Origin: Candidatus Eiseniibacteriota bacterium
GTDB lineage: Bacteria; Eisenbacteria; RBG-16-71-46; JABDJR01; JAWXBZ01
DNA length: 64,000 nucleotides
Reading direction: 5' to 3'
Assembly: GCA_034440375.1 (NCBI GenBank)
Contig: JAWXBZ010000235.1
Location: 1 to 64,000, forward strand
Below, in pieces: positions 34,886-43,331 of this stretch. The notes beneath the pieces were generated by a model, which was given only the letters and a program-made list of their open reading frames with translations, ran no database searches and was not told the DNA's origin. The first letter of the stretch is position 1. Every line of letters starts with the position of its first letter. The translations under genes and the position numbers were made by a program.

Positions 34886-35290
34886 GTGGGAGAACTGAAG
34901 GACGTGACGGCACCGAGAGGACTAACGGAAGAATCCACGATCTCCACCACGCCGCGTCAGCCGGGCCTTGACCTGCTCCGTCTCGTGGCCATTGTGCTGG
35001 TGCTCGGCCGTCATCTGTTGCCACCGCCGGATTCGTTGCCGGGCGGCTGGCGAATGGCCTTGGCCACCTGGCAGCAGGGTGGGTGGATTGGCGTTGATCT
35101 CTTCTTCGTCCTGAGCGGCTTCCTGGTGTCCGGGCTCTTGTTTGCCTAGTTCAAGTTGCATGGCCAGGTGACGCCTGCCCTGTTTTTTGCCCGCCGGGCG
35201 TGGAAAATTTATCCGCCGTACCTGGTGCTCATTGCCGTCACGGTCCATTCCTGTTCACGGTGGGGCTCACTCTCTTGTATCTCGGGGGCC
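34886..35290 (+). pseudogene. acyltransferase_3 (OafA-like O-acyltransferase) remnant
   Basis: GLDLLR..AI and GVDLFFVLSGFLV, then an in-frame TAG at 35147-35149, then FFARRAWKIYPPY, after which homology is lost. A fragment FTVGLTLLYLG sits in another frame. Confidence 0.85.
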
Positions 35291-35341
35291 GTTGGACCAC
35301 CCAGTGCCAACGCCCCATCTCCCTCCGGGAGCAGGCCCCAC

Positions 35342-36520
35342 TCAGTGAGCCGCGTCCTCACCCCAGAGCTCTTTCAACCGGGCATCACGACCACAGCCGA
35401 GTCGGTAGCCGAAATAATGGACCGGGTTCTTCCGGTGATAGTCCTGATGGTATTCCTCGGCGGGCCAGAAGGTGCCGGCGGGACTGATCGTCGTGACGAT
35501 CGGTCCCGACACCTTCAACTTCGTGGCAGCCCAGTCCCGGCTCGCCTCGGCCAGCGCCTGCTGCCGGGTGCTGCGAGGGAAAATGGCGGCCCGATAGGTG
35601 TCGCCCCAATCGCAGAACTGCCGGTCGTCCGTCGTCGGATCGACGTTTCGCCAGTACACCTTCAACAGGTCGGCGTAGCTCACCTTTGTGGAATCAAAGG
35701 CTACCCAGATGGCTTCGATGTGGCCCGTCGTGTGGGTATTGCTCATCTCATACGTCGGGTCGTCCATATGCCCGCCGGTGTAGCCGGAAACAACCGCATA
35801 AACTCCAGGAATTTTCTCGAAGGGTAGTTCCATGCACCAGAAGCAGCCACCGGCCAGGATGGCCACATCCTGGTTCGGTTGGTCGGCCGGCAGCATGGCC
35901 ATGCCGGAGTGCTTCGATTTCGGCGCCCGCGAGAGCTGGAATCGGGCGGCGTCGGCGCCCCGCAATTCCGGCAACTCTTCCTCGCCGGGTACAAATCGGA
36001 GTGACACGCCGTTATTGCACCAGCGCTGGCCGGTCGGGGGGGGGCCGTCATCAAAGAGGTGGCCCATGTGTCCGCCGCACCGCACGCAGTGATACTCGGT
36101 TCGGGGCACGATCATCTTCGTATCCTGCCTGAGCCCGAGCCGCCCCGGTATCGGTTCGAAGAAGCTGGGCCACCCCGTGCCGCTGTCGAACTTGCTTTTC
36201 GACGAAAAGACCGGGAGATAGCAAGCCGCGCAGACGAACGTTCCCGCGCGGTGTTCGTCATTCAACGGGCTGGTGAAAGCCCGTTCCGTTCCGTCCTCGA
36301 ACAGGACCCGCCGGGCTTCCGGCGAGACCTTGTCGCGCCAGAAGTCGGGGGTCACGGCCAGCGGTGAAACGGCCGTCATGTCCCAGGCAGCGGCGTGAGG
36401 GCCAACCGTCGGGGGCGTGTCGGCGCGCGTGCTGTTTCGGGGAGTCGCCCCGCAGGCCATCAGGAGGAGGGCGGGGAGTGTCAGGCCGATAAGCCAGGCC
36501 GGCTGGCGGTTGGGTGACAT
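35342..36520 (-). CDS. msrAB: exported methionine sulfoxide reductase MsrB-MsrA fusion (lipoprotein)
   Basis: LLLMAC lipobox. MsrB part: GTERAF, CAAC, KFDSGTGWPSF, CVRCGGHMGHLF, RWCNN. MsrA part: AGGCFWC, GYTGG, FWPAEEYHQDY. Confidence 0.93.
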   Translation of the reverse strand: MSPNRQPAWLIGLTLPALLLMACGATPRNSTRADTPPTVGPHAAAWDMTAVSPLAVTPDFWRDKVSPEARRVLFEDGTERAFTSPLNDEHRAGTFVCAACYLPVFSSKSKFDSGTGWPSFFEPIPGRLGLRQDTKMIVPRTEYHCVRCGGHMGHLFDDGPPPTGQRWCNNGVSLRFVPGEEELPELRGADAARFQLSRAPKSKHSGMAMLPADQPNQDVAILAGGCFWCMELPFEKIPGVYAVVSGYTGGHMDDPTYEMSNTHTTGHIEAIWVAFDSTKVSYADLLKVYWRNVDPTTDDRQFCDWGDTYRAAIFPRSTRQQALAEASRDWAATKLKVSGPIVTTISPAGTFWPAEEYHQDYHRKNPVHYFGYRLGCGRDARLKELWGEDAAH

Positions 36521-36643
36521 GCCGGGTTGGATGCCGCGGGAAGGCGGCTGGTTTCCTTTAATATCGGGTGACGTCAGGATTGCTGATAGGGAAACCACGT
36601 GTAATTGCTCCCAAAAGGCATCGATTCTCGTGACAGGCTCCAT

Positions 36644-37552
36644 TCACTTACCGCGAAAGTTGACTTTTCGGCCCGCGTTGCAAATGGCGACGACGGCCGG
36701 GTGACTTAAGCGCCGCTCTGCAGAGATGGCGTAGAATCGCTGGCGGAGGGTGCCGACCCGCCCGACAACCCGCACGCGGTAGCGCTTGACCACGTCCGCT
36801 TCGATGGCGGAAGGGCCAGCGAAGACCCCGACGCCGGCCTCTCCGAGCACCTTTAGGAGGGCGCTGTCGTCGATCTCGCCGACGATCCGCGGCCGCAGCT
36901 TCTGCGACTCGAACCAGTCCTCGAGGCTCCGGCGCAGTGCTGCGTTGCGGCCCGGAAGCAAGAAGGGGGCTCCATTCAACCCACCGGGAAACCGCTTGTG
37001 CAGGGTCGCCGCCACACGTGGGTTCGCGAAGAAGCAGGTGCCGGTCTCGCCAAGGAGATGACTGAATAGCTTGACCGGCAGCTCCGACCCCGCAGGGGCA
37101 TCGGAGAGCACAACATCGAGGCCGTGTACCGCCAACTCAGAGAGGAACCCTTCCAGGGACCTGTCCTCGCGACAGACGAGACGCACGGGCTCACCCAGTT
37201 GCAGGGCCGGCTCGATGAGTTGTTGCACGATCGCTTTGGGCACCGCGTTTGTAACGCCGACGACGAGACGGAGCGGGTGTCCAGCCGCTTGTCCTCTGAC
37301 GGTCTCAACAAACTCCCGCCCGAGAGTGAAGATCTCGTCGGCATAACGAAAAGCGACGCGCCCCACATCGGTGAGTACCAGGCGTCGCCCAACGCGCCTG
37401 AAGAGCTTCTCACCCAGCATCTCCTCCAGCCGTCGGATCTGACCGCTGACAGTCGGCTGGGCGAGCCGGAGCTCTTTGCTCGCTCGCACAATGCTGCCTT
37501 CCCGGGCGACCATCCAAAAGTAGAGAAAATGGTGGTAGTTGAGCCACTCCAT
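36644..37552 (-). CDS. nhaR: LysR-family transcriptional activator NhaR
   Basis: MEWLNYHHFLYFWMVAREGSI N terminus, then HGLDVVLSD, SHLLGE, GEIDDSALLK and FYAISAERRLSHPAV. Confidence 0.88.
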   Translation of the reverse strand: MEWLNYHHFLYFWMVAREGSIVRASKELRLAQPTVSGQIRRLEEMLGEKLFRRVGRRLVLTDVGRVAFRYADEIFTLGREFVETVRGQAAGHPLRLVVGVTNAVPKAIVQQLIEPALQLGEPVRLVCREDRSLEGFLSELAVHGLDVVLSDAPAGSELPVKLFSHLLGETGTCFFANPRVAATLHKRFPGGLNGAPFLLPGRNAALRRSLEDWFESQKLRPRIVGEIDDSALLKVLGEAGVGVFAGPSAIEADVVKRYRVRVVGRVGTLRQRFYAISAERRLSHPAVVAICNAGRKVNFRGK

Positions 37553-37559
37553 GGCCGGC

Positions 37560-37580
37560 AGTATACCTCGTATTTTACGA
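37560..37580. promoter_or_regulatory. LysR T-N11-A palindrome next to the leaderless nhaR -10 box
   Basis: TCGTA-TTT-TACGA at 37568-37580. TATACT on the minus strand (37560-37565) lies 7 nt before the nhaR ATG, in an AT-rich divergent spacer. Confidence 0.65.
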
Positions 37581-37742
37581 AGGATTGCCTCTAATCTTTC
37601 TTATTTTATTCAGGGCTCGTGTATCCGATTCTTCACATGTGCCTCGCGAGGTGCGAACCCGATCTGAACTTCCGAGGAGATTCTGCCGGAACCCCGTACG
37701 GGGACCCGGGTCACTTACACGTCACACGAGGGGCCAACCCCG

Positions 37743-38447
37743 ATGACCACACTACAACTCGCGCCGACTTTTCTCCTGGCTTCACTGCTGCTCTGCGCGT
37801 TGCCCGCGATCTCCAATGAGCCACGGCGCGACCGGGAACACCCGAAAGTTGTCGCTGCCGATGCATTCGCCCGTCTCGAAGACGGCAACCAGCGCTACGT
37901 GGCTGCAGAAAGCTCATGCCTCCACGACAGACAGGACGCCAAGCGCCGCGTCGATCAGGCCACCGATCAGCATCCGTTCGCAGTCATCCTCGGTTGCGCG
38001 GATTCGCGCACTTCACCGGAGCTGTTGTTCGACCAGGGCCTCGGTGATTTGTTCGTCGTCCGGGTGGCCGGCAATGTTCTCAACGACCACGTCCTCGGCA
38101 GCATCGAGTATGCGGTCGAACATCTAGGGGCTCGGATCGTCGTCGTCCTCGGCCATGAGCGCTGCGGCGCGGTTAAAGCCACCAGAGACATTCTTGCAAC
38201 CAAAGCCGAGGCGCCATCGCACATCAACTCGCTGGTTAGCGCCATTCGGCCGGCGGTGGAGGCCGCCCCCGGGACCGACCTGGAGGTCATGATCCACGCG
38301 AACATCCGATACGTGGTTCAAGGTCTGCGCTCATCCGCCCCCACTCTCAAGAGCAAGGTTGACTCGGGGGAGATCGTCGTGGTGGGTGCCTACTACGACC
38401 TCGATACGGGTAAGGTGGTTTTCATCGATGATGGGCAGGATGACTGA
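37743..38447 (+). CDS. beta-class carbonic anhydrase with predicted signal peptide
   Basis: Motifs GNQRY, ILGCADSR, GDLFVVRVAGN, SIEYAV, GHERCGAV and YYDLDTG; hydrophobic N terminus. Confidence 0.93.
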   Translation: MTTLQLAPTFLLASLLLCALPAISNEPRRDREHPKVVAADAFARLEDGNQRYVAAESSCLHDRQDAKRRVDQATDQHPFAVILGCADSRTSPELLFDQGLGDLFVVRVAGNVLNDHVLGSIEYAVEHLGARIVVVLGHERCGAVKATRDILATKAEAPSHINSLVSAIRPAVEAAPGTDLEVMIHANIRYVVQGLRSSAPTLKSKVDSGEIVVVGAYYDLDTGKVVFIDDGQDD

Positions 38448-38636
38448 AACAGAGCGAGATCACTGTGGATCGTCATGCCGGTAGCAGGGGCGTGTCTGAA
38501 ACAGCACTGGTTTCCGCGAAGTCGCCGAGGCGCGGATTCTGCGATGAGCGCCAATCACGAGGACTACAACCAGCCCACGCCGAACCATGCTCAGACACAA
38601 GGAACGCCGGTCGTGTGGCCGCAGAGAGGTGAAGTC

Positions 38637-39851
38637 ATGAACAGGTACTCAACCACCGGGACAGGCGACACTGAGATGCCAACCATGGATCTGAGCGAGC
38701 TCCAGGCTCACATCCGTGCCCTCATCACGTTGGAGGAGACTGACGCGCCGACGCTCAGTTGCTACCTGAGCGTGGGGGGGCCGGTCAACGACCCCCTGCC
38801 AGCGTTTGATCGGCGCGTGAACGCAGTCCGCAAGGTGCTCCGGCGGGAGGAACGCGAGCCCTTCGAGGAGGCACTCAACCACATCAAAAACTTTCTGGCC
38901 AATGAAGTGCATTCCGCCGCACAAGGCGTAGCGGTCTTCTCCCGGGCCGGGACGAGGCCCTTTTCCCTGGGACTGCAGTTTCAGGTGCCGCTTCCCGACC
39001 TGCTATTGGTTGACTCGACTCCAAACATCCACCACCTGGTCGAGCTCAAGGACACTTACCACCGTTACGTCGTGCTCATCACCACCGAGAAGTGGGCGCG
39101 TATCCTCGAAGTCAACCTCGGCGCCATCACGGAAGAACTATGGACCGCGCGACCCGAGCTGCGCGAGCGGGTAGGCCGTGAGTGGACTCAGGAGCATTAC
39201 CAGAACCACCGTCGCGATCGTGGCGAACGCTTCCTCAAGGAAAAGATCGAGGTTCTCGAGCAACTCATGTCAGCCGGCGGACACACCCACCTGATCCTGG
39301 CGGGTAGCCCCCGTCTGACTGCGAGGGTACGCAACTGCCTCCCGAAACACATCGCCGCCAAGCTTGTGGACACCGTGTCGGCCTCAGCGAACGTTCGTGT
39401 AGACGATGTGGTCACTGCGACGCTGTCGAGTTTCGTCGAAGTGGAACAGGAGGAGTCGCTGACCGCCGTGGCTCAGCTCGTCAGCAACCTGCGGCGCGGT
39501 GGTCTCGCTGTATCCGCTACCGGACCCACCCTCCTGGCCCTGCGACGCGGGCAGGCCGACGTCCTGGTCCTGGCCACGACATACGAACCGCCGCTCGGGG
39601 CAAGCTGCCGAGCCTGCGGGTGGATCGATGCTGTGTCCCGAATGCCCGCGGAATGCCCGGAGTGCACATCGGCCGAGCTCAGGGCCGTGAACCTCAAGGA
39701 GGCAATGGTCAAACTCGCGGTGGAACGATCCACCGAGGTCGAGTTCGTCCGGGACAGCGACACCCTTATGGATCTCGGCGGTGTGGGTTGCCTGTTGCGA
39801 TACGCGATGTCGAAGCAGGGCATGTGGGTTGGATCCGAAGAGGGCATGTGA
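38637..39851 (+). CDS. bacterial aeRF1/pelota-like protein (baeRF) with zinc ribbon, lacking GGQ
   Basis: LSCYL; GVAVFS; YVVLI..ARI; REWTQEHYQNH in place of the GGQ loop; LILAG; ALRRGQADVLVL; CRAC..CPEC; LGGVGCLLRY C terminus. Start is uncertain (38637 has a GAGGTG RBS; 38676 and 38685 are alternatives). Confidence 0.82.
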   Translation: MNRYSTTGTGDTEMPTMDLSELQAHIRALITLEETDAPTLSCYLSVGGPVNDPLPAFDRRVNAVRKVLRREEREPFEEALNHIKNFLANEVHSAAQGVAVFSRAGTRPFSLGLQFQVPLPDLLLVDSTPNIHHLVELKDTYHRYVVLITTEKWARILEVNLGAITEELWTARPELRERVGREWTQEHYQNHRRDRGERFLKEKIEVLEQLMSAGGHTHLILAGSPRLTARVRNCLPKHIAAKLVDTVSASANVRVDDVVTATLSSFVEVEQEESLTAVAQLVSNLRRGGLAVSATGPTLLALRRGQADVLVLATTYEPPLGASCRACGWIDAVSRMPAECPECTSAELRAVNLKEAMVKLAVERSTEVEFVRDSDTLMDLGGVGCLLRYAMSKQGMWVGSEEGM

Positions 39852-39903
39852 TGAAAGTCAATCTCCGCAGATCTCGTGGCCCAGTACCCAATCAAGAGAT
39901 CTC

Positions 39904-40902
39904 ATGACGCAGGAGCTGTGGCTATGGATAGGGTTCAACGCTTTCATCGTCGGAATGCTGGTGCTGGATCTCGCCGTGTTCCACAAGAAACCGCACGAGG
40001 TGAAGTTCAAGGAGGCCGCGGGCTGGAGCGTATTCTGGATCGCCCTCGCTCTCGTGTTCAACGCGGGCCTGTGGTTCGTGCGCGGCCAGCAGGCGGGGCT
40101 CGAGTTCCTGACCGCGTATCTCATCGAGAAGTCGCTCAGCGTGGACAACCTGTTCGTGTTCCTGCTGGTGTTCTCGTACTTCGCGGTGCCCGCGAAACAC
40201 CAGCACGGGGTGCTGTTCTGGGGCATCCTCGGCGCGCTCGTGTTCCGCTTCATCTTCATCATCGCCGGCATCGAGCTGCTCGAGAGCTTCCACTGGCTGA
40301 TCTACGTGTTCGGTGCAATCCTCATCGTGTCCGGGGTCAAACTGTGGCAGGAGAAGGAGAAGAAGATCGAGCCCGAGAAGAACCCGCTCGTGCGCCTGTT
40401 CCGTCGCCTGATGCCGGTGACGCCCGAGTACCACGACGGAAAGTTCTTCGTACGGCAGTCCGGAAAGCTCGCGGCCACGCCGCTGTTCGTCGTGCTGCTC
40501 GTGGTCGAGACCACCGACATCGTGTTCGCGGTGGACTCGATCCCGGCGGTCCTCGCGATCACGCGCGACCCGTTCATCGTGTACAGCTCGAACGCGTTCG
40601 CGATCCTCGGGCTCCGCGCGCTGTACTTCGCGCTCTCGGGAGTCATGCGGATGTTCCACCACCTGCACTACGGCCTGTCGGCGGTCCTCGTGTTCATCGG
40701 CGTCAAGATGATCGCCTCGGAGTTCGTCAAGGTGCCGACCGTGGCCTCGCTTGCGGTCGTGGCTGCGATCCTCGCGGTCTCGATCTGGGCGAGTCTCCGG
40801 TGGCCCGCGAAGGGCGGGCATGCGGTGTCGGAGACCCCAATCGCTTCGGGCGATACGGCCGTGCGGCCCGAGGTAGCCGAGGATGCGGAGAGCTCCCGGT
40901 GA
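39904..40902 (+). CDS. terC: TerC/Alx family metal-homeostasis membrane protein
   Basis: Motifs YLIEKSLSVDNLFVF, LFWGILGALVFR, ETTDIVFAVDSIPA and SNAFAILGLRALYF. Confidence 0.93.
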   Translation: MTQELWLWIGFNAFIVGMLVLDLAVFHKKPHEVKFKEAAGWSVFWIALALVFNAGLWFVRGQQAGLEFLTAYLIEKSLSVDNLFVFLLVFSYFAVPAKHQHGVLFWGILGALVFRFIFIIAGIELLESFHWLIYVFGAILIVSGVKLWQEKEKKIEPEKNPLVRLFRRLMPVTPEYHDGKFFVRQSGKLAATPLFVVLLVVETTDIVFAVDSIPAVLAITRDPFIVYSSNAFAILGLRALYFALSGVMRMFHHLHYGLSAVLVFIGVKMIASEFVKVPTVASLAVVAAILAVSIWASLRWPAKGGHAVSETPIASGDTAVRPEVAEDAESSR

Positions 40903-40999
40903 GCCGGCCGTTCCAGTTCTGACCGCAGGGGGTCGCCCGCGAAGAGATCCTTCCAGAGCCGCGGTGTGATGCGGCCACGGGAGGAAGAATGGGCGAGCC

Positions 41000-41422
41000 T
41001 CATGGGAGTACAGAGAACCCCTCACGTCGAGCCGCGCTCGAGAGGCGCGTGTCGAGCGATATGAAGGAGTGGCCAGTGGGGTCGTCGTGTGTTGCGATCA
41101 GGGCCGCGCCCAGTTGAAGTGCATCGCCGGCGCGGATGGCGTGGATTCCCAGGAGTCGCTTGGCCCGGAGTTTGACTGGTTCCAGCAGCGAAATGAGCTC
41201 GATGACCTGCCAATGGAACTCGGCTTCCTCCCGAGCCTGACGGATCATTTCCTCGGAAACGATCCGTTCACGCTCCAGCCGGGCGAGGGCGGATCGGATC
41301 TCGACATCGCTCAGGGTCCATGTATACACGCGGCCACCGAGCTCAAGGATGTCACGGACGTCGTCGCTGCTCGCCTGACTGACGTAAAGGGCCACCAGTG
41401 CCGATGAATCCCAGTAGGTCAT
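41000..41422 (-). CDS. vapC: VapC/PIN-domain toxin
   Basis: Motifs YWDSSALV, EIRSAL, RAGDALQLGAA and SLDTRL..AARREG. Confidence 0.9.
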   Translation of the reverse strand: MTYWDSSALVALYVSQASSDDVRDILELGGRVYTWTLSDVEIRSALARLERERIVSEEMIRQAREEAEFHWQVIELISLLEPVKLRAKRLLGIHAIRAGDALQLGAALIATHDDPTGHSFISLDTRLSSAARREGFSVLP

Positions 41423-41706
41423 TCCCTGTCTCGGTCCTCGCTCAGGAGGCGGACGATGTCCACCGGGCAGGGGATCGGCGGATTCAGTGGACGACGCGGC
41501 CCCGATCGGTGTTGCGCCGGGGTCACGATGCCCTCGCGGACCAGGCGCTCCAGATAGGCGTCCTCGCTCTCGAGCGTCTTCGGAAGGCCCGATAGGTGGG
41601 CAATGGGGACCGAGTGCTCAAGGACCTCTATGGTCTCCCCACTCTTGACCAATCGCAGGTACTGGCTCAGCCGGTTCTTGAGTTCGCTGACGCTCACTTT
41701 CTTCAT
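41419..41706 (-). CDS. Phd/YefM-family antitoxin
   Basis: MKKVSVSELKNRLSQYLRLVKSGETIEV; ATGA overlap with the toxin gene. Confidence 0.9.
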   Translation of the reverse strand: MKKVSVSELKNRLSQYLRLVKSGETIEVLEHSVPIAHLSGLPKTLESEDAYLERLVREGIVTPAQHRSGPRRPLNPPIPCPVDIVRLLSEDRDRE

Positions 41707-41712
41707 TTGGCT

Positions 41713-41741
41713 AGAATAGCTATATTTATTAGGCCTGTCAA
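41713..41741 (-). promoter_or_regulatory. leaderless sigma70 promoter of the TA operon, with short palindromes
   Basis: TTGACA-17 nt-TATTCT-6 nt-ATG. Inverted repeat GCTA-N3-TAGC covers the -10 box. Confidence 0.8.
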
Positions 41742-41762
41742 GCCTGATTAGACGGTGCCTGG

Positions 41763-43331
41763 TCATCGTTCCGCCCCCTCCCGATCCAGGCACCGATACT
41801 GAATGGCCTCCGCCACCTGTGCCGACGACAGCATGTCGGCGCCGGCCATGTCGGCGATCGTTCGCGCCACCTTGAGAACGCGCCGGTGGGCGCGGGCCGA
41901 CAGTCCGAAGCGTTCCATGGCCCGGCGGAGGAGGTCGGTGGCGGCCAGATCGGTGGCACAGTATTGGTCGGTCTCATCGTGTGACATGCGAGCGTTGATC
42001 GGTGGACGGGGGCGCGCCAATGATTGCGCGGCCGCGGCAAGGCGGATCGTCTGGATTTCCCTCGCCGCGGCCACCCGCTCCCGGATCGGCAGCGAGGGCT
42101 CGCCACGCTCGCGCGAGGCCAGGTCGTCGAAGGCCACCGGCGGCAACTCGAGGTGCAGGTCGAAGCGATCCAGCAGCGGCCCGGAAACCCGGGCGCGATA
42201 GGCGCGGATTTCACGATCCGAGCAGAGACACCGGCGGCGCGAGTCGCCCAGGTGGCCGCAGGCGCAGGGGTTCATGGCGCCGACGATCATGGCGTCGGCG
42301 GGGTAACGAACGTTGAGCATCGAGCGGCTGACGCGGACGAAGCCCTCCTCCAGCGGCTGACGCAGGGCCTCGAGAACGTTGCGGCGAAACTCGGGGAGTT
42401 CGTCCAGGAAGAGCACGCCACCGTGAGCCAGCGAGAGTTCTCCCGGCAGGGCCCGTGGGCCGCCCCCGATCAGTCCGGAGTCGGAGATCGTGTGGTGGGG
42501 CGATCGGAACGGGCGATCGAGCATCAGTGGCCGGCCGAAGGGCAATCGCCCCGCCACGGAGTGAATGCGGGTGACGACGAGCGCCTCATCCAGGGCCAGC
42601 GACGGCAGAATCGTCGGCAGGCGCCGGGCGAGCATCGTCTTTCCCGAGCCTGGCGGGCCAACGAACAGAATGTTGTGGCCTCCGGCCGCCGCTACTTCGA
42701 TGGCCCGCCGGGCCGGCAGTTGGCCGCGCACATCACCCATGTCCAGGTGACTGTCGCGACGGGAAACGTGGGCCCATTCCCCGTCCGGAAGGGAACTCGG
42801 CTCCGGCCCGGATTCGAGCAGCCAGTCGAGCGCCTCGCGCAGCGTGGCCAGCGGCACCAGCGGGATGCTCTTCGCGAGCGCGGCCTCGCTTCGGTTTCCC
42901 AGGGGAAGAAGAAAGGAGCGGGCGCCCATACCGACACCCATCATGGCCATCGACAGGACGCCACGAACCGGCCGGATGGATCCGTCAAGCGCCAACTCGC
43001 CGGTGGCCAGGAATGGACCGTTCCGAATCAGGTCTTTCGGACGGCGGCCGTTGTCGGTGGCGGCCAGGAGTGCCAGGCTGATCGGCAGGTCGTAGGCGGT
43101 GCCGGATTTTCGAACATCCGCGGGGGCCAGGTTCACCGTGATGCGGCCGGAGGGGAAGCGAAGGCCGGAATTCTTGAAGGCAGCCTGGATCCGTTCGCGG
43201 CTTTCCCGGACGGCCATGTCGGGGAGGCCCACGATGGTGAAGACCGGCAATCCCGGTGCCACATCGACTTCGACGTCGACCGGTCGGGCTTCGATGCCGG
43301 CCAGTGTTGCGGAAAGAACGCGCGCCAGCAT
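41763..43331 (-). CDS. comM: ComM/YifB Mg-chelatase-like AAA+ ATPase
   Basis: Motifs VGLPD..RESRERI, NLAPAD, GPPGSGKTM, RSPHHT, FLDELPEF, NPCACG, SGPLLDRFD and VARTIAD. Confidence 0.93.
   Translation of the reverse strand: MLARVLSATLAGIEARPVDVEVDVAPGLPVFTIVGLPDMAVRESRERIQAAFKNSGLRFPSGRITVNLAPADVRKSGTAYDLPISLALLAATDNGRRPKDLIRNGPFLATGELALDGSIRPVRGVLSMAMMGVGMGARSFLLPLGNRSEAALAKSIPLVPLATLREALDWLLESGPEPSSLPDGEWAHVSRRDSHLDMGDVRGQLPARRAIEVAAAGGHNILFVGPPGSGKTMLARRLPTILPSLALDEALVVTRIHSVAGRLPFGRPLMLDRPFRSPHHTISDSGLIGGGPRALPGELSLAHGGVLFLDELPEFRRNVLEALRQPLEEGFVRVSRSMLNVRYPADAMIVGAMNPCACGHLGDSRRRCLCSDREIRAYRARVSGPLLDRFDLHLELPPVAFDDLASRERGEPSLPIRERVAAAREIQTIRLAAAAQSLARPRPPINARMSHDETDQYCATDLAATDLLRRAMERFGLSARAHRRVLKVARTIADMAGADMLSSAQVAEAIQYRCLDREGAER

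Follow-up and report, generated by a model that had tools for sequence, protein, structure and literature searches.

In Escherichia coli, NhaR is a Na+-responsive LysR-type activator of nhaA, and alx is alkali-induced and linked to Mn2+. Balon, a homologue of aeRF1, is a ribosome hibernation factor. To our knowledge, the only role on record for regulators of the NhaR type is that of Na+/alkaline switches acting on nhaA and a small number of further genes in enterobacteria, and the inducers of Balon-type hibernation factors are known for only a few species. Here we describe a locus in which a regulator of the NhaR family faces a string of genes that includes an aeRF1-like gene and an Alx-type TerC gene. 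It occupies positions 36644-40902 of a 64,000-nucleotide (nt) window, meaning the whole stretch of DNA that was analysed, on contig JAWXBZ010000235.1 of assembly GCA_034440375.1 (Candidatus Eiseniibacteriota bacterium, genome estimated to be 93.7% complete). The NhaR-family LysR gene lies on the - strand and is divergent from genes for a carbonic anhydrase (CA), a baeRF family 10 (baeRF-10) protein and TerC, all on the + strand. We see about an even chance that the locus is a local, single-target module in which the NhaR-type LysR activates a CA-baeRF-TerC operon encoding a non-catalytic, Balon-like factor and a Mn2+ exporter, with an ionic or alkaline signal as the likeliest trigger. The genes and the longest gap between those on the + strand are as follows.

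36644-37552, - strand: NhaR-family LysR-type regulator (NCBIfam NhaR equivalog NF008284, 241.6 bits against a cut-off of 219)
37743-38447, + strand: beta-carbonic anhydrase (Pro_CA, PF00484, E 1.4e-40; NF011765, 130 bits, under its cut-off of 221)
38448-38636, + strand: CA-baeRF spacer, 189 nt, partly conserved with the spacer between a superoxide dismutase (SOD)-like gene and baeRF in the relative G155 (alignments A3 and A4)
38637-39851, + strand: aeRF1-like protein, baeRF family 10 (PF18854, 70.5 bits against a gathering cut-off of 27.1)
39904-40902, + strand: Alx-type TerC membrane protein (TIGR03718, 432.9 bits against 246.4)

The regulator contains HTH_1 and LysR_substrate domains, shares 40% identity with E. 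coli K-12 NhaR over its full length (300 residues, E 1e-70) and is the sole copy above the NF008284 cut-off in the host genome; among 14 control genomes, only E. coli exceeds that cut-off. The zinc ligands of the carbonic anhydrase, CxDxR and HxxC, are readable as CADSR and HERC, and its hydrophobic N-terminus suggests that the enzyme is probably exported. For baeRF-10, the open reading frame (ORF) spans 38475-39851 (+), and homologues align from about residue 68-71 onward; the start at 38637 was assigned because its Shine-Dalgarno sequence and ATG are conserved in the relatives G155 and G132, and an alternative start at 38676 is the source's own gene call (391 aa). The TerC ORF spans 39781-40902 (+), with a likely start at 39904. 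With these corrected starts, 189 nt separate CA from baeRF and 52 nt separate the baeRF stop codon from TerC. A first-pass annotation of this DNA had named the genes as a NhaR-family LysR, a beta-carbonic anhydrase, a GGQ-less aeRF1-like protein and an Alx-type TerC, and the domain and family scores bear out all four identities; the start codons of two genes, baeRF and TerC, needed correction. It had also remarked that the module contains no antiporter gene, and none is present among the module genes.

The comparison with E. coli NhaR and nhaA shows the same regulator family, acting locally in the sense that the regulator gene sits beside a gene for membrane ion homeostasis. In E. coli K-12, nhaA and nhaR are co-oriented, whereas here the regulator is divergent from its presumed target, and a search of the 93.7%-complete genome for the NhaA family (PF06965) gave zero matches. 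In place of nhaA, the putative targets on the divergent side encode a carbonic anhydrase, a ribosome factor (baeRF) and a TerC protein, and Na+ would be the putative effector by analogy. Elsewhere in the host genome there are four CPA-type exchangers (PF00999) and four TerC paralogues, and the single HPF gene is on another contig, outside the CA-baeRF-TerC operon. With E. coli alx, which carries the PRE/yybP-ykoY Mn2+ riboswitch, the locus shares an Alx-type TerC, and alkaline/Mn2+ physiology is a plausible common theme. The two differ in that the riboswitch is not found here and a protein regulator stands in its place: although the 'R_switched' label of TIGR03718 would lead one to expect such an element, positions 35000-42000 gave no Rfam match, including yybP-ykoY, at E <= 1, and no match at gathering score was found in 13 other TerC-bearing loci. 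A riboswitch or other RNA family was therefore rejected as the controller.

The neighbourhoods of baeRF-10 genes were surveyed in 69 loci, comprising 68 relative loci (one-genome-per-species contigs, all from metagenome-assembled genomes, MAGs) and the window, with all ORFs clustered together. A NhaR-family LysR gene was found in 26 of the 69 loci, and in 22 of these 26 it is divergent from the gene string that holds baeRF-10; no other LysR cluster reached 4 of the 69 loci. At least eight phylum labels are represented among these 26 LysR-bearing loci (Eisenbacteria, Myxococcota, Pseudomonadota-labelled MAGs, Acidobacteriota, Planctomycetota, Verrucomicrobiota, Gemmatimonadota and GN15). Neighbours of baeRF-10 include TerC (23 loci), tandem Usp (19), a sigma-54 response regulator (18), a histidine kinase (14), a P-type cation ATPase (13), HPF (10) and an ion-transport channel (7), followed by beta-CA, an M48 protease and a CPA2-TrkA exchanger (6 each), CNNM and an M50-CBS protease (5 each) and a Na/Ca exchanger (4). 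HPF had been named in the first-pass annotation as one of the neighbours to look for. CA, baeRF and TerC are found together, in different gene orders, in an Acidobacteriota locus (L007) and a Bacteroidota locus (L041) as well, and the exact four-gene set was seen in this window only. Between loci, LysR identity rises and falls with baeRF identity in pairwise comparison (Mantel r 0.754, with 0 of 2000 permutations reaching this value), a co-variation for which shared ancestry alone could suffice. The genomes of L050, L017, L009 and L047 hold one NhaR-family hit in three cases and two in the fourth, and the best hit in these genomes is likely the copy beside baeRF. The linkage of LysR and baeRF is not due to chance.

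A second type of regulatory neighbourhood was observed in the same survey. In the 18 loci with a sigma-54 response regulator (14 of which also have a histidine kinase), an ORF family of 337 aa without a Pfam hit, C11, is present, and this set stands in place of, or beside, the LysR gene; examples include L013-L015, L021, L024, L026, L029, L034, L035 and L037, with further cases in L044, L049, L056, L062 and others. A sigma-54 promoter of the TGGCAC-N5-TTGCW-like pattern was found upstream of baeRF in 0 of these 18 loci and in 3 of the other 51.

Within a same-phylum sample of 206 genomes, the LysR family is present in 58, with 29 over the cut-off. A close baeRF-10 copy is present in four (G000, which is the genome of the window, and G155, G132 and G156), and in all four the LysR gene is adjacent and divergent; at E <= 1e-30, baeRF is matched in 13 of the 206, which includes nine distant paralogues and G072. 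In a quick maximum-likelihood tree, the LysR of the window falls within a 10-row clade (SH-aLRT 99), and the divergent operons of this clade vary in content while all lying behind the same alignable operator. Their gene orders, read away from the LysR gene, are given here.

Window: CA-baeRF-TerC
G155: SOD-like-baeRF-TerC
G132: baeRF-TerC
G156: baeRF, then contig end
G084: CA-TerC; at E <= 1e-30 this genome gives no baeRF match
G069: TerC
G129 and G115: SOD-like, then contig end

The CA ortholog in G084 is 75% identical to that of the window, and TerC comes directly after it. At the position of CA, three relatives carry the SOD-like gene (L001 5254-5955, L105 1-690 and L077 2-196), whose 233-aa product has only a C-terminal Fe/Mn-SOD domain (E ~4e-14). 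When G155 (L001) is compared with the window, the factor is 60-63% identical and much more diverged than the flanking LysR (82%) or TerC (88%). Elsewhere in the phylum, the gene opposite the LysR copy is TerC in five more loci, trehalose-phosphatase in two, and in others HPF, Usp or a Na/Ca exchanger; about a dozen more copies face unrelated enzymes or genes without a Pfam hit. A sample of 251 Acidobacteriota genomes yielded 30 NhaR-family loci, which were viewed with 1.5-kb flanks. A panel gene lies beside LysR in 17 of the 30 (TerC 10, HPF 5, M48 4, P-type ATPase 2, Usp 2, baeRF 1), the other 13 have none, and the HPF cases are arranged as HPF-TerC and HPF-M48-TerC, facing LysR.

We read the module as mix-and-match. 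Across relatives its constant core is the regulator, accompanied by TerC, by a ribosome-hibernation factor (HPF or the presumed one, baeRF-10) or by both, and CA, the SOD-like protein, the M48 protease, Usp and the cation transporters are exchangeable extras. The first-pass annotation had described a NhaR-linked stress cassette with carbonic anhydrase as an integral member. The conserved link between regulator and operon (26/69 loci; 4/4 in the same phylum) and the TerC partner (23/69) uphold part of that description, and the role given to carbonic anhydrase is not borne out in that form: CA is an occasional passenger, minor and exchangeable, found in 6/69 loci and replaced by the SOD-like gene in the nearest relative, G155.

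The spacer between the LysR and CA genes is 190 nt long (37553-37742). Its GC content is 0.505 at 37500-37699 compared with 0.555-0.69 in the flanking 200-base windows within 36600-38299, which agrees with the AT-rich spacer carrying a T-N11-A (T37568-N11-A37580) pointed out previously for this DNA. When anchored on the LysR ATG, the LysR upstream regions can be aligned across 15 loci (alignment A2), and the elements below are placed by that alignment.

37560-37565, - strand: putative -10-like hexamer TATACT, at 7 nt from the ATG of the LysR gene
37566-37583, no strand: dyad CCTCG-N7-CGAAG with T-N11-A inside (37568-37580), presumed LysR recognition site
37596-37612, + strand: box CTTTCTTATTTTATTCA, family consensus TTTCTAATTTTCTA, presumed activation site, overlapping the -35
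37625-37632, + strand: putative -10-like block CCGATTCT for the target operon (A2 columns 73-80)

The ATAC core of the LysR hexamer is conserved, with T12 and A13 invariant in the alignment, and its distance from the ATG suggests that the LysR mRNA is leaderless or nearly so. A GTCAC-like spacer lies between the dyad and the box, C48 and T49 of the box are invariant across the 15 loci, and the target -10-like block in other phyla is TATAGT/TATATA/TACAAT-like. If the block at 37625-37632 is the target -10, the dyad would be centred at about -64 and the box would lie over the -35. A T-N11-A dyad near -65 with a second site near -35 is the classic layout of LysR-type divergent promoters, and the dyad and box of the 15 aligned loci conform to it, with positions set by the -10-like block. 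The T-N11-A is trivial on its own. A perfect 5+5 inverted repeat at the anchored place, on the other hand, was found in 14 of 25 LysR upstream regions, compared with 193 of 1250 shuffles (15%) and 4 of 25 downstream control regions. The same operator precedes CA in the window, baeRF in G132 and TerC in G069. As the dyad by itself is too low in information for a genome scan, a position weight matrix (PWM) of the 49-nt composite operator was built from seven clade members, and it finds one site in the genome, at 70.2 bits, with nothing else above 18; the distant HPF gene is without this operator. Given a single PWM site in the genome, the regulator looks local and single-target. A wider regulon in the host genome was rejected, since the matrix finds only its own site.

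A near-palindrome of 12+12 nt (CCGGAACCCCGT/ACGGGGACCCGG, 83% complementary) was also observed at 37686-37709, in the presumed 5' leader of CA.

The baeRF-10 sequence contains neither GGQ nor NIKS, and its predicted structure (AlphaFold, 62 sequences, pLDDT 87) has the three-domain aeRF1 fold. Foldseek places Balon Msmeg1130 (8v9j, E 6e-19) and archaeal aRF1 4af1 (E 1e-18) at the top, with eRF1 and Pelota lower. Together with the PF18854 match, this substantiates the earlier description of the protein as a GGQ-less aeRF1 homologue. The kinship to Balon claimed alongside it stands at the level of the superfamily and falls at membership in the curated Balon families, whose cut-offs are missed, the protein being as close to archaeal aRF1. 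The NIKS of aRF1 aligns to a variable helix of baeRF-10, and the GGQ position, placed by extrapolation through gapless extension of the 4af1 alignment, whose aligned block begins 4 residues later, corresponds to Trp237 (62/63 sequences). The most conserved block, IYHLVELKDTYHR, is invariant and aligns with IHPLVE of Msmeg1130; by this alignment the nearly invariant YH, which pairs with the HP of IHPLVE, may correspond to the published HP motif of Balon. Balon is further characterised by a bL27 trap and by a beta-hairpin that stands where the C domain would otherwise carry the zinc ribbon.

Balon (P. urativorans 8RD8; Msmeg1130 8V9J; Rv2629 8V9K) and baeRF-10 are thus alike in fold and in the lack of both motifs. 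They are unlike in that their sequence kinship is weak (phmmer E 2e-6) and that baeRF-10 keeps a CxxC...CxxC zinc ribbon, which Msmeg1130 is without in the profile alignment. As with the Balon-RaiA/HPF operons, the setting is that of a stress operon, and HPF adjoins baeRF-10 in 10 of the 69 loci; unlike them, the operon described here has no HPF. Archaeal aRF1 (4af1) aligns with baeRF-10 in domain order and in the zinc ribbon of the C domain, and differs from it in that baeRF-10, besides missing GGQ and NIKS, is a bacterial, patchily distributed and stress-linked gene. The baeRF-10 family comprises at least 1100 clusters at E <= 1e-20. PF18854 is precomputed on all 120 best listed relatives, and their annotations go no further than names of the kind 'hypothetical protein' or 'protein required for attachment to host cells', with 'rubrerythrin' given once. 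In four loci (L046, L056, L060 and L062), the baeRF-10 match is split into two tblastn segments, which may reflect a frameshift, a pseudogene or an assembly error.

We infer activation, co-transcription, ribosome binding, the TerC substrate and the signal as follows. The NhaR-family LysR would bind the dyad about 64 nt upstream of the inferred divergent start and the second box over the -35, and, bound at both sites, it would activate one transcript encoding CA, the ribosome factor and TerC, in addition to autoregulating its own, putatively leaderless gene, which abuts msrBA. The CA product would be an exported beta-carbonic anhydrase and TerC an Alx-type exporter of divalent cations (Mn2+), and baeRF-10 would act as an aRF1-shaped, non-catalytic, Balon-like A-site factor that parks ribosomes. 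The inducing signal would be Na+/ionic or alkaline stress if the analogy to NhaR and alx of E. coli is followed. A Na+/alkaline signal is probable, as it fits the cation and osmoprotectant partners found in relatives (CPA2 exchangers, Na/Ca exchangers, P-type cation ATPases, ion channels, CNNM and trehalose-phosphatase), the lack of a Mn2+/pH riboswitch, and an account from E. coli in which NhaR, together with its effector, binds at the promoter of rmf and deletion of nhaR alters the levels of RMF and 100S ribosomes (PMC10003395).

A broader proposal, to which we would give somewhat less than an even chance, is that NhaR-type LysR proteins serve in many soil phyla as dedicated local switches of a module of TerC and ribosome hibernation (HPF, baeRF-10 or both), wiring cation/pH stress to ribosome parking in place of the alx Mn2+/pH riboswitch, with baeRF-10 forming a branch of its own among the A-site hibernation factors, one that bears a zinc ribbon.

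Several observations count against the module as we read it, and they are considered here with the alternatives. Among the 69 baeRF-10 loci, 43 have no NhaR-type LysR in the fetched flanks, and 18 have the sigma-54 response regulator instead; conversely, 54 of the 58 LysR-bearing same-phylum genomes are without a close baeRF-10. The E. coli deletion of nhaR raised RMF, which indicates repression, the opposite sign to the activation proposed here (PMC10003395). A sigma-70 consensus scan of 36400-41200 returned 0 promoter-like sites at the thresholds used, a result that is expected for an activator-dependent promoter. For 36644-40902, a look through sequencing runs listed no RNA data set. The presence of SOD-like and MsrBA genes nearby speaks for oxidative or metal stress and not for Na+, and the same architecture could answer to Mn2+/oxidative stress or to bicarbonate/CO2, making it a metal/redox unit that also throttles translation. 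We consider such a signal rather unlikely. Several points favour it: TerC/Alx is described as a Mn2+ exporter in E. coli (10.1101/2023.05.07.539761), the SOD-like gene replaces CA in G155, G129 and G115, a MsrB-MsrA gene abuts the regulator in the window, bicarbonate is the product of CA, and the NhaR equivalog model measures sequence kinship and not the effector. The partners across phyla, however, are mostly transporters of mono- and divalent cations, channels and an osmoprotectant enzyme, MsrBA is not conserved beside LysR, and the SOD-like match is confined to the C-terminal domain (E 4e-14). It is also conceivable, and to our minds quite improbable, that the genes are neighbours without forming one unit, with LysR controlling CA alone, or itself and msrBA, and baeRF-TerC relying on a promoter of its own. 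The 189-nt gap between CA and baeRF is long and partly conserved, with a stretch shared between two relatives, and could hold such a promoter, and the first gene after the operator varies between relatives. That variation includes baeRF directly facing the operator in G132 and G156, TerC in G069 and CA-TerC in G084, so that each gene is found directly under the operator somewhere; moreover, no + strand terminator-like site was found between CA and baeRF, and the gap between baeRF and TerC is only 52 nt.

The function of the factor is contested separately, as baeRF-10 could, instead of serving in hibernation, be a factor of the aRF1 type for release or rescue, fully or partly active, that frees stalled ribosomes during the stress, which we regard as unlikely. 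Burroughs and Aravind single out baeRF family 10 as possibly catalytic, with a conserved Gln and possible hydrolase activity (PMC6514570). In the sequences compared here, Q243 (HYQ), six residues after Trp237, is kept in 50/63. It is Trp237 itself, and not a Gln, that occupies the GGQ position in the extrapolated alignment, and no GGQ is present. Searched against PDB, the family profile fits aRF1 4af1 (3.6e-13) about as well as Msmeg1130 (8.5e-13), the aligned zinc ribbon of aRF1 is kept in 54-55/63 baeRF-10 sequences, and the curated Balon families are missed by far (NF052288/NF052289, 48.8 bits against 480 and 40.8 against 320). Set against this kinship to a release factor, the NIKS region is not conserved, and the adjacency of HPF in 10/69 loci fits hibernation.

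The non-coding stretches 38509-38560 and 38618-38636 of the CA-baeRF spacer are conserved in G155 (L001 6018-6117). A 193-nt fold ahead of baeRF is no more stable than shuffles (z +0.69), giving no indication of a structured leader there. An alifold of two sequences, which hold too little variation to judge and give no fold signal, pairs UUUCCGCG with the Shine-Dalgarno region GCAGAGAGG, and the former could be an anti-Shine-Dalgarno element.

Parts of this picture are already in print. The link between baeRF families and HPF is described in PMC6514570, and the stress-operon contexts of Balon and its link to HPF are described in PMC10901736, where the text names RaiA, Hsp20, OsmC/OsmY, HdeD, MarC, EmrB and RtcB as Balon neighbours. 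The terms LysR, NhaR, TerC, antiporter and carbonic have 0 occurrences in the main text of that paper, supplements aside. Literature on NhaR with hibernation, with TerC/Alx and with carbonic anhydrase, on Balon with LysR, and on NhaR with four phylum names yielded no description of the linkage.

If the proposed reading is true, the module is a direct transcriptional wire from cation/pH stress to ribosome parking, and it offers a defined regulator, a predicted operator and a candidate signal for the induction of a hibernation factor, in a pattern that holds across poorly studied phyla dominant in soils. TerC/Alx may share a single stress response with ribosome hibernation, and outside enterobacteria the regulon of the NhaR family may be different and far broader. 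The occurrence of TerC, CA-TerC, baeRF-TerC and CA-baeRF-TerC behind an orthologous operator shows, in a clean natural case, an operon being remodelled while its regulator stays fixed.

The EF-Tu gene (tuf) is represented in the G000 MAG by contig-edge fragments only (contigs C222 and C17), placing it in assembly gaps. The two flanks of the locus were annotated as well. On the regulator side lies one further gene.

35342-36643, - strand: MsrB-MsrA fusion gene (SelR and PMSR domains; NF004042, 290.7 bits, under its cut-off of 330)

Its ATG abuts the LysR stop codon (gap of 0 nt), and msrBA may be co-transcribed with the LysR gene. The fusion carries a hydrophobic stretch, and its N-terminal extension is long. 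No MsrBA homologue was found beside LysR in the 68 baeRF-10 relative loci or in 29 same-phylum loci, and MsrBA was rejected as a member of the conserved unit on account of its absence beside LysR in all fetched relatives. On the other side, directly after TerC, there is a VapBC-type toxin-antitoxin pair (window 41000-41793, - strand), in which a small Phd/YefM-like gene, whose score of 27.5 bits is just under the cut-off of 29.8, comes before a PIN-domain gene, whose match (E 3.9e-6) is over the cut-off, and overlaps it by 4 nt.

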